This document shows, one piece after another, positions 10,701-13,700 of a DNA stretch of 18,168 nucleotides; the stretch's first letter is position 1; each line of letters opens with the position of its first letter. The position numbers are program-made. Origin of the DNA: a virus (Duplodnaviria; Heunggongvirae; Uroviricota; Caudoviricetes); the IMG/VR virus record IMGVR_UViG_2740892218_000008. One strand, 5' to 3'.

Positions 10701-13700
10701 TGTGCCATTTGTTAATTTTCCTATATTGATATGGAGTTATAGCGGCATACCCAGTGGATTTGCCGCTGATGTTTGCTCACCCGGTTAGAGGTGAAAGGCC
10801 AGAACTGTTAAAGAGCAATTTACTTATGCCGCTTGGCGGTAAGCACTTTCTTGATACTTCAGGGCGCCAGCTGTAACGATTTCCAATCGATAGGCGTCTT
10901 TCTCTGGGATAACTTCTTTCCACTGAGAGACTGCTGCATCGCTAATGCCTAGTGCTTTAGCAACAGCACGCTGGGTTCCGAAGTGGTCAATAACATCTTT
11001 TTTGTACATAGACTCGCTCCGAAATTAAAGGGCACTTAAATTATCTGCTAAAGGAATCTTAAGTCAAGTTTATTTAAGATGTCTTAACTATGAATACACA
11101 ACTGATGGGTGAGCGTATTCGCGCTCGCAGAAAAGAACTCAAGATTAGGCAGGCTGCCCTTGGCAAGATGGTTGGCGTGTCTAATGTTGCTATTTCCCAA
11201 TGGGAGCGATCTGAAACTGAGCCCAATGGCGAAAACCTATTGGCCTTAGCCAAGGCTTTGCAGTGCTCCCCTGATTACCTGTTGAAAGGAGAGGATAGTC
11301 TTTCAAACATTGCCTATCACAGCAGGCATGCTCCAAGAGGTTCGTATCCTCTAATTAGTTGGGTAAGCGCAGGATGTTGGATGGAAGCTGTAGAGCCATA
11401 TCATAGGCGTGCAATAGATAACTGGTACGACACAACGGTAGATTGTTCTGAAGACTCTTTTTGGCTCGACGTTAAAGGCGACTCAATGACTGCCCCGGCA
11501 GGACTGAGTATTCCTGAGGGGATGATTATTCTCGTCGACCCAGAAGTCGAACCACGTAATGGAAAGCTGGTAGTCGCCAAACTTGAAGGAGAAAACGAGG
11601 CGACATTCAAAAAGTTAGTTATTGATGCCGGTAGAAAATTCCTGAAACCACTCAATCCACAATACCCAATGATTGAAATCAATGGGAACTGTAAAATCAT
11701 TGGCGTTGTCGTTGATGCCAAGCTAGCAAACCTTCCTTAAGGGGCTTTCGCCCCTTTTTTATTTCCCGTTAAAAATCAAAGACAAACTAAATTCACGCCC
11801 ATAAAATTAAGTTTTCTTCAAAAATACAGTTGACCTACAAATTAAGAAGTCTTAAATTTAAGCCATCAGCAGGACGCTGGAAGCCAAACGGAACAGATTG
11901 GCAGGCTCTTTAACATCGACGAACTCTCAACCTAACCGTTGAGACCAGAACTTGAGTGGTTTTGGGGATGGCGCGAATTGCAGCTGCAAGACAGCGATCG
12001 AGAAGATAAGCACCTCGACGCGTCATGCGCCAAAGCCACTTAAAGGAGACCATCATGGTAACCATAGTCTGGAAAGAATCCAAAGGTACAGCAAAAAGCC
12101 GCTACAAAGCTCGCAGAGCAGAACTTATTGCCGAGCGACGAAGTAATGAAGCACTGGCGCGAAAAATTGCGCTAAAGCTCTCTGGTTGCGTCAGAGCAGA
12201 CAAAGCAGCATCACTGGGAAGCCTTTGCTACAAGAAGAAAGAAGAATTCGTTCGAAAAAATAGAAGTATTTATTACAAGGATTCAAACCCATTAGGAAAC
12301 AAAATACATGCAGTCCAAAAAATAAAATTGTACAGTAAACCACCGTACGGTGCTTATTGAGTATGCTTATGGTGAAAAAGACTATTTATGTTAATCCTGA
12401 CCGCGGACAAAACAGAAAAGTATCTGATAGAGGCCTTACATCTCGAGACAGGAGGAGAATAGCGAGATGGGAAAAGAGGATAGCATATGCATTAAAAAAC
12501 GGTGTAACACCTGGATTTAATGCTATAGATGACGGTCCTGAATATAAGATTAATGAAGACCCAATGGACAAAGTTGACAAAGCATTAGCAACACCATTTC
12601 CTCGCGATGTTGAAAAAATTGAAGATGAAAAATATGAGGATGTAATGCACAGAGTTGTTAACCACGCTCACCAACGAAATCCAAATAAAAAATGGTCATA
12701 GCCCACTTCGATGGTTTTTTTTATTGTCTGAACTAACCGAATTTATTACAGCAAGCCACGCAGTGAAATGGGTGTGACTTGTGTTGGTCGCCAGAAAATG
12801 AAATTAGGCAGCAAACCACTTATTTGAGGTGATATATGGAAGAACAGGCAAATAAGATTCTCATAGAACTATTGCAAAAAGCCAGTAATGGAATAGACAC
12901 GGCTGTCTCATTTATCCAGGCACAGATTCCTGATGTTGTTCATCAGTTGCTGCTATGGAATATGGTTGACAGTCTGATTAAAACATTAATAGCCATTTTA
13001 ACAATCCCGCTGGTTTTCTGGTTTATGAAGAAACAGTACCAAAAAGTTGAAATTGGTAAGTTCGATGATGAAGGATGGTCATGGGATAAGGGGAAGACTA
13101 AATACAAACCGACTATGATTTGGGAAAGTAACGGTGAGATTAGTTTTCTAATCTTACCATTAGCTGCAGTTTTTGTTCTGTGGGTAAATTTTATTATTGC
13201 TGTAGCAATCAATATGACTTGGTTAAAAATTTGGCTGGCCCCAAAGCTTTACCTTATCGAATATGCAGCATCATTGGTTAAGTAATTTTAGGCCGCATAG
13301 TCGGCCTTTATTTTTGGCATAAACAACAGAATAAACACTGCACTGTGTATTCATTCCAACGAGTGAATACACGGAGCAATGTCGCTCGTAACTAAACAGG
13401 AGCCGACTTGTTCTGATTATTGGAAATCTTCTTTGCCCTCTAATGTGAGGGCGATTTTTTATCTATGAGGATATGAATAGATGTCAAACATCAAAAAATA
13501 CATCATTGATTACGACTGGAAAGCATCAATAGAAATTGAAATCGACCATGACGTAATGACAGAGGAAAAACTTCACCAGATTAATAATTTCTGGTCAGAC
13601 TCTGAATACCGACTCAATAAACACGGCTCTGTATTAAATGCTGTATTAATCATGCTGGCGCAACATGCTCTGCTTATAGCAATTTCAAGCGACTTAAATG

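Follow-up and report, generated by a model that had tools for sequence, protein, structure and literature searches.

A predicted HK022-type nun gene and an unrelated, widespread phage membrane-protein gene between N and ea10 of a lambdoid prophage

We have analysed the interval between N and ea10 (positions 12363-13460) in an 18,168-nucleotide stretch of viral DNA (IMG/VR record IMGVR_UViG_2740892218_000008; hereafter the window), and find it to be mostly ordinary: a known exclusion gene, nun, is followed by an unrelated gene, here called ORF-B, for a widespread phage membrane protein. Judged by its sequence, the first gene is almost certainly nun of the HK022 type, and the two genes are very probably independent modules. 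The element that carries them is a lambdoid prophage with phage-21 immunity, originating probably from Escherichia albertii. An initial annotation recognised neither protein and proposed an uncharacterised module. That description holds for ORF-B, which falls in no characterised family, but not for the first protein, which is 99% identical to Nun, a factor with solved structures and decades of genetics behind it. The full explanation, in which the interval consists of two independent pL accessory modules, Nun and a stand-alone ORF-B of the exclusion or immunity type, strikes us as about an even call. The features of the region, in order, are as follows.

11830-11858, plus strand: candidate pL promoter, TTGACC / 17-nt spacer / TAAATT, a sequence match from a consensus scan
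11905-11944, plus strand: nutL of the phage-21 type, with boxA at about 11905-11922 and the boxB hairpin at 11925-11944
12055-12360, plus strand: antiterminator N of the phage-21 type, 101 aa (phrog_271, E=4.6e-31; its counterparts in mEp235 and phage 21 carry the annotation N or antiterminator)
12363-12701, plus strand: nun, predicted HK022-type transcription-arrest (lambda exclusion) protein, 112 aa, ATG at 12363
12702-12722, plus strand: decayed remnant of the post-nun intrinsic terminator, CCCACTTCGATGG followed by T8
12735-12827, plus strand: relic of a lambda-type N, comprising its last 30 codons and TGA; a recombination scar
12836-13285, plus strand: ORF-B, 149-aa membrane protein with two transmembrane helices, PHROG 3054
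13290-13317, plus strand: intrinsic terminator-like hairpin (13290-13307), AGGCCG-CATAGT-CGGCCT, with a T tract
13433-13464, plus strand: second intrinsic terminator-like hairpin (13433-13454), TTGCCCTC-TAATGT-GAGGGCGA, with T6, adjoining ea10 on its upstream side
13481-13849, plus strand: ea10 (DUF2528), the right-hand boundary of the slot (PF10800, E=3.7e-47; 98.5% identical to lambda)

The candidate pL lies downstream of a repressor-gene terminator (11739-11756), at the position of pL/oL in imm21-type phages, and the DNA here shares 96-98% identity with phage 21 and mEp235. Within nutL, the boxA annotation of mEp235 (L001 2706-2723) maps onto window positions 11905-11922, and the boxB hairpin reads TCTCAACC-TAACC-GTTGAGA (11925-11944). 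The 21-type boxB inverted repeat is present in one copy against none expected by chance, and a lambda-type boxB was absent across the whole window with up to two mismatches allowed. N starts at 12055 behind the Shine-Dalgarno sequence AAGGAGA, in agreement with the mEp235 annotation, and this replaces a start previously placed at 12025. The interval between N and ea10 is A+T-rich, as had been noted: its G+C content of 0.382 is below that of the window (0.452) and of gam-bet (0.514); the adjoining ea10 is also low, at 0.390.

The 112-aa product of the first gene is identical to chain N of PDB 6ALG at 108 of 109 residues, and the sole difference (an S-to-R change at PDB chain residue 10) lies outside both functional segments. 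Its boxB-binding arginine-rich motif (residues ~20-44) matches chain B of PDB 1HJI, from the solved Nun-boxB complex, at 26 of 26 positions. The C terminus, HAHQRNPNKKWS, is identical to that of 6ALG chain N, and all of the RNA polymerase-contacting residues are retained (H93, R94, N97, H98, H100, R102, K106, K107 and W108), including H98, K106/K107 and the penultimate W108, for which roles have been described (PMC5386594). Additionally, the protein matches the 'Nun-like' family phrog_5632 (E=4.5e-71) and is 99.1% identical to Nun of HK022, mEp235, mEpX1 and O276. PHROG and the PDB supplied the only matches, Pfam, NCBIfam and PADLOC scans having returned none. Earlier descriptions of this protein as basic/acidic and coupled to N are borne out: it contains 24 K/R and 18 D/E residues, and its ATG lies 2 nt past the TGA of N (12358-12360), a gap that supports translational coupling of N and nun. 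The expectation that the slot after N would hold an exclusion gene also proved correct, Nun being the classic lambda-exclusion factor. About the Nun protein itself, the window copy teaches nothing new.

The mechanism and key residues of Nun have been described previously (PMC5386594, PMC4496710). Acting in the same way, the protein encoded here would bind the nut RNA of a superinfecting lambda and arrest RNA polymerase, with the C-terminal segment H93-W108 wedging into the enzyme. Because translocation of the polymerase would be blocked, early transcription of the superinfecting lambda would be aborted, and lambda-exclusion activity is predicted for this copy from its sequence. The gene lies at the start of the operon, after pL, nutL and N, and the nutL boxB of the prophage is of the 21 type. 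The prophage combines N and nutL of the 21 type, and lambda boxB is missing from it; its own Nun should therefore leave it unaffected. Nun would spare the phage-21 nut. King et al. reportedly found in 2000 that HK022 nun is expressed in the repressed prophage from promoters just upstream of the gene. In the window, the ~120 bp 5' of nun, inside the 3' end of N, are 96% conserved; in HK022 this segment must hold these promoters, and by analogy with HK022 we predict expression of nun from the repressed prophage.

GenBank already contains examples of nun placed behind an N of the phage-21 type. Phages mEp235, mEpX1, PA28 and Stx1a phages resemble the window in having an intact N and then, directly, nun, and mEp235 shares 97.9% DNA identity with it over the stretch between the 3' end of the repressor gene and a point ~130 bp past nun. 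These elements differ in the next slot, which holds a 207-aa phrog_1965 protein in mEp235, a 156-aa phrog_1636 protein in PA28 and ORF-B in the window. HK022 has nun in the same place, where it is the first function encoded beyond the pL leader, but carries a 37-codon relic of N with a mutated stop codon, whereas nun in the window follows an intact, coupled N of the 21 type. Taken with the N relic of HK022, this pairing of an intact N with nun suggests that nun arose beside a working N and that HK022 lost its N later. We found nun in 220 of 5,426 complete E. coli genomes. Routine annotation thus overlooks a textbook exclusion gene, which in the RefSeq rows inspected carries the labels 'hypothetical protein' or 'transcriptional regulator'.

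Between nun and ORF-B lies the N relic, which translates to NRIYYSKPRSEMGVTCVGRQKMKLGSKPLI and a stop and agrees with the CUS-3 N C terminus at 29 of 30 residues. Its DNA matches the 3' ends of the CUS-3 and HK633 N genes at 94-97% identity (blastn), and its stop codon overlaps the Shine-Dalgarno site of ORF-B. We suggest that ORF-B arrived by recombination along with this fragment of a lambda-type N gene, and that it would be read as part of the pL transcript. Immediately after nun, mEp235 and loci L003, L044 and L050 have an intact hairpin, CCCAC-UUCG-GUGGG-U6 (-7.8 kcal/mol), and HK022 has its own version (-9.3 kcal/mol). By comparison, the terminator in the window is decayed: here and in the E. 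albertii relatives the hairpin does not form, the best fold being -1.7. We considered a tie between this decay and the presence of ORF-B downstream, and rejected it because L044, L050 and L003 carry both genes and an intact terminator.

Genomic context bears on whether the two genes belong together. Across 80 IMG/VR loci that carry ORF-B at ≥76% identity, at least four types of N occur upstream of it, ral precedes it in roughly a sixth and nun in three; sieB accompanies ORF-B in a single locus (L087). Conversely, nun is found with other downstream cargo in mEp235, PA28 and HK022. The low co-occurrence, the other cargo of nun and the N relic between the genes all argue that nun and ORF-B are independent modules, and we hold this with high confidence. 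The contrary proposal, that nun and ORF-B form one novel exclusion or defence cassette working as a unit, draws on their adjacency, their shared strand, their similarly low G+C content and the decay of the intervening terminator in the window lineage, as a result of which the genes may be co-transcribed. However, Nun acts alone in HK022, where no gene but IS903 lies downstream, and nun precedes ORF-B in only 3 of the 80 related loci. The two are also separated by what is left of another N gene, and the terminator between them is intact in other loci that have both genes (L044, L050). A joint cassette is thus very improbable, and the initial annotation's two-gene unit does not survive the survey, as each gene has many other partners.

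Relatives of ORF-B occupy a wide range of slots, including the pL operon, the P22 gp4-gp10 interval, sites after lysis genes or near head-tail connector genes, opposite-strand islands within head and tail genes and, in lytic phages, early or unannotated regions. No constant partner gene was found beside them. In a Pantoea P2-like prophage, a 56%-identical homologue lies between an endolysin-like gene and Rz/Rz1.

Hydropathy bears out the earlier description of ORF-B as a 149-aa protein with two transmembrane helices. The hydrophobic segments span residues ~46-64 and 104-125 (Kyte-Doolittle values up to 2.0 and 2.7, respectively) and contain the polar residues K49 and N118. The gene also has the Shine-Dalgarno sequence of its own that had been claimed for it, GAGGTG at 12826-12831. 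Residues 1-46 and 127-149 are strongly conserved, and the central portion comprising the first helix, loop and second helix is hypervariable. Across 55 distinct alleles, dN/dS is 0.08 for the N terminus, 0.39 for the centre and 0.06 for the C terminus; these values establish ORF-B as a real gene whose termini are under purifying selection and whose centre is relaxed. As the central value is 0.39 and not above 1, it does not demonstrate positive selection. Some alleles are 94% identical to the window in the centre yet 78-81% identical at the ends, revealing intragenic mosaicism, and the loop ranges from 11 to 76 aa across the family. Topology signals conflict: positive-inside counts of K/R are 5.7 for the loop, 2.3 for the N tail and 2.6 for the C tail, with positive charges clustering just after the first helix and the C tail also basic. 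AlphaFold2 models (pLDDT 64 with 26 sequences and 69 with 66) consist of helices with low-confidence packing, and a Foldseek search of BFVD with such a low-confidence model returned uncharacterised family members only.

Two terminators had been assigned to this gene. Both hairpins exist, the first beginning 5 nt past the ORF-B stop codon, and terminator-like sites in the region number 8 against 1.7 expected by chance. However, from 13297 onward, which includes all of the second hairpin and most of the first, the DNA matches the lambda ral-ea10 intergenic region at 98.5% identity. Because this is the ordinary lambda spacer, neither terminator is specific to ORF-B. The first hairpin is also conserved in the 3' flank of CUS-3 and HK633 homologues and in the spacer downstream of lambda ral, and the second we take to be, probably, lambda tL2a.

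ORF-B belongs to a large family. It matches phrog_3054 over the whole profile (E=2.6e-58), as do 66 of 66 diverse family members, and it carries the family motifs PDV..QLL.W (N-terminal) and WLKIW.APKLYLIEYAA (C-terminal), which flank the two transmembrane helices. At E≤1e-3 and with clustering at 50% identity, the family comprises 2,474 representative clusters. Its hosts include Escherichia, Salmonella, Klebsiella, Vibrio, Pseudomonas and others, its phages are both temperate and lytic, and even between very distant hosts the terminal helices hardly vary. The earlier view of this second gene as an uncharacterised membrane protein in an exchangeable accessory slot is therefore upheld. No annotated homologue was found, the family having no characterised member, and literature searches on the family, on phrog_3054 and on the N-nun arrangement found no paper on ORF-B. 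It matched nothing in Pfam (E≤1), NCBIfam or the PDB, and neither Nun nor ORF-B matched any known or candidate defence model in PADLOC-DB 2.0 at E≤1. Scattered single Pfam matches among the 66 diverse relatives fell in unrelated membrane families and were judged to be noise, and PDB profile matches to designed coiled coils and GPCR helices (E>0.05) were rejected.

Small integral inner-membrane proteins that are encoded by free-standing accessory genes without a partner, and that block DNA entry, provide a precedent in P22 SieA, HK97 gp15 and T4 Imm (PMC10883804). Tentatively, and by analogy with these, we favour ORF-B as a stand-alone inner-membrane protein of the exclusion or immunity type, a reading we hold with low confidence. 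At the cytoplasmic membrane ORF-B would work by itself: the conserved terminal helices would make up a shared scaffold on one membrane face, and specificity would come from the hypervariable hairpin and loop. The likeness is one of kind: against P22 SieA, profile alignment (hhalign) gave a probability of 0.4% over 13 hydrophobic columns, and HK97 gp15 and T4 Imm are likened by description. The ORF-B family is also far larger than those of SieA, gp15 and Imm, and occurs in many lytic phages as well.

A rival reading arises from the slot itself, as lambda and P22 likewise place a membrane-associated accessory gene, sieB, between N and cIII. ORF-B is a membrane protein in the same general slot as sieB and ral of these phages, and a widespread accessory gene that moves between slots, all of which would suit an abortive-infection effector like RexB or SieB that stays innocuous before superinfection and, once triggered, collapses membrane function or macromolecular synthesis. 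However, sieB has a promoter of its own and lies on the opposite strand; ORF-B is on the pL strand, and no promoter was detected for it. The two also lack sequence or profile similarity: the suggested SieB family (PF14163) was absent for ORF-B and for all 66 family members, and hhalign gave the family profile probabilities of 0.1% against lambda SieB and 0.5% against P22 SieB. Moreover, both genes are present in L087, which shows that ORF-B is not simply a replacement for SieB. No conserved sensor or partner gene sits alongside ORF-B, and the family is common in strictly lytic phages, which have no obvious use for a suicide effector. We consider this reading improbable.

The Pantoea homologue touches on function from another direction. 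It holds the place that lysA has in P2, between the endolysin gene and lysB/lysC, and in that one lineage it points to a role other than exclusion. ORF-B could on this basis be a regulator of lysis timing (an antiholin, holin modulator or lysis-inhibition factor) that acts in lytic growth, analogous to P2 LysA. Consistent with such a role, it is a small two-helix membrane protein with polar residues in its helices (K49, N118), as in holins, the charges flanking the helices give conflicting topology signals, and the gene would be transcribed from the lytic pL operon, its own promoter being undetected. Yet the lysis-cassette position is confined to one lineage, most contexts are early or accessory and far from lysis genes, and the lysis cassettes of lambdoid and P22-like carriers are complete without it (with P22 as the reference). 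LysA also appears to have more hydrophobic segments than ORF-B; there is no sequence similarity between them (hhalign against P2 LysA, 0.3%), and no holin Pfam family occurs among the 66 members. A lysis regulator is accordingly an unlikely reading, though less so than an abortive-infection effector.

Somewhat less doubtful is a role confined to lytic growth of the phage itself, in which ORF-B would modulate a host membrane function (a protease, transporter, division machinery or envelope stress) and take no part in conflict between phages. Its pL neighbours cIII, kil and gam are host-directed effectors, family members occur in early regions of lytic phages, and terminal helices that are nearly invariant across very distant hosts are easier to reconcile with a conserved host target than with phage targets that vary. 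The hypervariable centre and intragenic mosaicism would, however, be unexpected for a protein that only binds a host target, and ORF-B resembles no known modulator. We rank this reading below the exclusion or immunity type.

A prophage exclusion gene is expected to be expressed from the repressed prophage. For ORF-B such expression is unsupported, because a consensus scan found no promoter-like site upstream and the ORF-B module has homology only from its Shine-Dalgarno site onward. A possible exception is transcription running on from nun through the decayed terminator, which would give ORF-B expression in the prophage. In its broadest version, the favoured reading makes PHROG 3054 a very large class of phage membrane proteins, unrecognised so far, in which a single gene gives immunity or exclusion. 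Its members would combine an invariant scaffold, the terminal helices, with an exchangeable and hypervariable specificity hairpin that recombines as a cassette, and the decayed terminator of the E. albertii lineage would have joined nun and ORF-B into one exclusion transcript in the repressed prophage. We regard this extended version as improbable in full.

With conserved ends and a variable centre, ORF-B is a reasonable target for a cheap phage-panel screen, and a function, if found, would cover a large block of phage genes that are now without annotation (~2,500 clusters).

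The two genes that the initial annotation joined as an A+T-rich cassette between N and ea10 (12363-13460) are separate modules. Sequence matches identify the first as the textbook gene nun; the second, ORF-B, is a genuine if unremarkable unannotated phage gene, from a family already listed as being of unknown function. Both lie in the early-left (pL) operon of a lambdoid prophage, which is oriented along the + strand of the window:

10824-11009, - strand: cro
11090-11740, + strand: repressor of the P22-C2/phage-21 type, with its own terminator
11830-11858: pL-like promoter
11925-11944: nutL boxB hairpin of the 21 type
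12055 (start): N of the phage-21 type, 101 aa, start as in the mEp235 annotation
12363-12701, + strand: nun by sequence match, 112 aa, two bases 3' of the N stop codon
12836-13285, + strand: ORF-B, 149 aa; Shine-Dalgarno site GAGGTG; two hydrophobic segments (residues 46-64 and 104-125)
13290-13307 and 13433-13454: terminator-like hairpins 3' of ORF-B
Further right, in order: ea10 (DUF2528), cIII, kil, gam, bet

The sequence features described earlier all hold, including both reading frames, the two hydrophobic segments, the membrane gene's own Shine-Dalgarno site and the low G+C (0.382 in the region versus 0.452 in the window); the start of N had been misplaced and is corrected here. The two terminators assigned to the membrane gene are present as hairpins, but they are generic operon features, because the sequence from 13297 on, which spans the second hairpin and most of the first, is the ordinary lambda ral-ea10 spacer (98.5% DNA identity).

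Neither gene had been recognised, which remains fair for ORF-B but not for its neighbour. The first gene matches the PHROGs family 'Nun-like transcription termination factor' over its full length (E=4.5e-71), and PDB sequence searches found 108/109 residues identical to the Nun chain of 6ALG, a cryo-EM structure of Nun in an RNA polymerase elongation complex, and 26/26 identical to the 1HJI Nun peptide, solved with lambda boxB RNA; NCBIfam holds no model matching it. The sole difference from 6ALG (R in place of S at PDB chain residue 10) falls outside both functional segments, and all polymerase-contacting C-terminal residues listed in the structure paper (H93, R94, N97, H98, H100, R102, K106, K107 and W108; PMC5386594) are kept. 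Nun is tethered to lambda nut RNA by its arginine-rich motif, in competition with lambda N, and its C terminus blocks translocation of the polymerase; arrest is stimulated by Nus factors, the arrested complex is released by Mfd, and lambda exclusion is the only known biological role (PMC5386594, PMC4496710).

The prophage's own genome would offer Nun no target, since its nutL boxB is of the 21 type and no lambda-type boxB occurs anywhere in the window, even at two mismatches. Phages with phage-21 nut specificity are reportedly spared by Nun (work of Robert et al. in 1987). The N-bearing part matches phage 21 at ~96%, and the stretch between the repressor gene's 3' end and ~130 bp past nun shares 97.9% DNA identity with mEp235. 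The N-nun arrangement is already known: it is annotated in mEp235 and also found in mEpX1, PA28, Kapi1, PDP110P1 and a group of Stx1a phages. Among 5426 complete E. coli genomes, 220 carry nun, and the RefSeq rows inspected (matches H126-H137, for example NZ_CP039403.1 1832927-1833265) label it 'hypothetical protein' or 'transcriptional regulator'; in the same matches the N of the 21 type is likewise a 'hypothetical protein'.

HK022 lacks N; its similarity to the window begins at 12243, within the window's N gene, and ends shortly after nun. The sequence 5' of nun in HK022 (2381-2506 of that locus, against window 12243-12362) retains the final 37 codons of a 21-type N, in which TGG stands in place of the TGA stop, and this relic suggests that N-nun is the older arrangement and that the 5' portion of N was lost from HK022. 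The HK022 segments flanking IS903 (2868-2906 and 3964-4075) align with window 13321-13359 and 13351-13462, overlapping by 9 bp (13351-13359), which fits the 9-bp target duplication of IS903; with the element removed, nun would directly precede the ral-ea10-type terminator region.

Between nun and ORF-B, positions 12735-12827 encode NRIYYSKPRSEMGVTCVGRQKMKLGSKPLI and a stop, the C-terminal 30 residues of a lambda-type N (29/30 identical to CUS-3 N), and the TGA of this relic falls within the ORF-B Shine-Dalgarno site. Such a tail directly 5' of ORF-B reads as a recombination scar and indicates that ORF-B came in together with the end of another N gene. Besides its one intact N, the prophage thus has part of a second. 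Among 80 IMG/VR loci with ORF-B at >=76% identity, the gene lies nearly always in the pL operon, behind any of at least four N types, preceded by ral in roughly a sixth and by nun in just three; sieB lies alongside in one. Elsewhere the gene after nun is a 207-aa phrog_1965 gene (mEp235) or a 156-aa phrog_1636 gene (PA28), and in HK022 only IS903 comes next. We conclude that mosaic recombination placed the two genes side by side by chance, and that nun and ORF-B acting as one two-gene unit, as first proposed, is extremely improbable. Alternative cargo in the N-to-cIII slot (phrog_1965, 2471, 1636 and 17211/21365/1376, all of unknown function; mEp235 locus 3639-4262 and related loci L003 3836-4087, L103 2466-2936, L005 3113-4082 and L004 3055-3957) gave no PADLOC match. 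Three E. coli matches (H79, H80, H91) carry an 'Nmad5 family putative nucleotide modification protein' there.

The sole family match of ORF-B is phrog_3054 ('unknown function', E=2.6e-58); it matched no family in Pfam, NCBIfam or PADLOC, a PDB search gave nothing meaningful even from a profile of 66 sequences, and the only name offered by any source is 'Phage transmembrane protein'. The family is large: an exhaustive profile search yields 2474 representative clusters with E<=1e-3, 1142 of them with E<=1e-10. Phage records place relatives in phages of Escherichia, Salmonella, Klebsiella, Vibrio, Pseudomonas and Rheinheimera, including strictly lytic N4-like, phi92-like and rV5-like phages. An identical protein occurs on E. 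albertii assemblies, in prophages with the gene order of the window, which is probably itself an E. albertii prophage at the RND efflux membrane-fusion gene site. In those prophages (loci L011-L016, ~10900-12450) an integrase ends the pL arm, adjoining the host RND efflux membrane-fusion protein gene.

Residues 1-46 (A..L..LL.KA..G.D.AV.F.QAQIPDV..QLL.W) and 127-149 (WLKIW.APKLYLIEYAASL.K) are strongly conserved across the family, and the transmembrane helices and intervening loop are hypervariable, with loop lengths of 11 to 76 residues. Across 55 close alleles dN/dS is 0.08 at the N terminus, 0.39 in the centre and 0.06 at the C terminus; the terminal values establish a real gene with strongly constrained ends, and the central one reflects relaxed constraint and does not demonstrate positive selection. 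The gene is internally mosaic: in loci L031-L035 identity to the window is 94% for the centre and 78-81% for both ends, in most other alleles (L036-L102) it is 91-100% for the ends and ~82% for the centre, and in CUS-3 and HK633 just the first 120 and last 65 nt align by blastn. Many matches in 268 E. coli genomes likewise cover the two gene ends only.

An acidic N tail and positive charges clustered right after the first helix favour an N-out topology; the short C tail is basic too. AlphaFold2 models are helical and of low confidence (pLDDT 64-69), and a fold search with such a model returned family members only. The suggested SieB identity was not upheld, with no PF14163 match and hhalign probabilities of 0.1% (lambda SieB) and 0.5% (P22 SieB); SieA (0.4%) and P2 LysA (0.3%) were also rejected.

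Distant relatives occupy varied contexts:

After N in another lambdoid prophage
Between gp4 and gp10 in a P22-like phage
After the lysis genes, adjoining an Endonuclease_NS gene, in a Klebsiella prophage
Beside head-tail connector genes
Inside structural (head/tail) genes, on the opposite strand, in Vibrio phages
In early, replication or unannotated regions of lytic phages
Between an endolysin-like gene and Rz/Rz1 in one Pantoea P2-like prophage

Because relatives fill so many slots with no constant neighbour among the contexts examined, we read ORF-B as an independent accessory gene with a product that acts on its own. The Pantoea lysis cassette (L017/L018, 4870-6923) runs gpX, holin_8, holin_3_7, endolysin-like gene (140 aa, no Pfam match, motif NNNPGNIRW), ORF-B homologue, Rz/Rz1, and in P2 the homologue's position is held by lysA. 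This placement lends support to a regulator of lysis timing, a role that we consider quite unlikely for ORF-B.

ORF-B is thus a constrained, stand-alone two-helix membrane protein that shifts from one accessory slot to another in temperate and lytic phages, and it would act at the cytoplasmic membrane. Modulation of a host membrane function is unlikely, and an abortive-infection effector very unlikely. Our preferred reading, held tentatively, is an exclusion or immunity-type block of the kind that includes P22 SieA, HK97 gp15 and T4 Imm. On this view the scaffold would be the pair of conserved terminal helices, with specificity set by the variable hairpin. P22 SieA is a known representative of membrane exclusion (PMC10883804).

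Expression is where the exclusion reading is weakest. In the window no promoter-like site was found 5' of ORF-B and homology of the module starts only at its Shine-Dalgarno site, so as the evidence stands the gene belongs to the lytic pL transcript, save for possible read-through from nun promoters in this lineage. Such promoters reportedly lie just upstream of nun in HK022 (King et al., in 2000). A short intrinsic terminator normally follows nun (CCCAC-UUCG-GUGGG-U6, -7.8 kcal/mol; mEp235, L003, L044, L050), and HK022 has a different hairpin (-9.3). At window 12702-12722 two or three changes destroy the stem, leaving a best fold of -1.7 kcal/mol that is not the hairpin, so nun transcripts may continue into ORF-B. 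The E. albertii relatives examined (L011-L016, L023) show the same decay. A tie between decay and ORF-B presence was rejected, as other loci carry nun, ORF-B and an intact terminator.

These results provide the identification of Nun and evidence that N-nun predates the loss of N in HK022. Additionally, the architecture and distribution described for the PHROG 3054 family could guide a simple expression screen.
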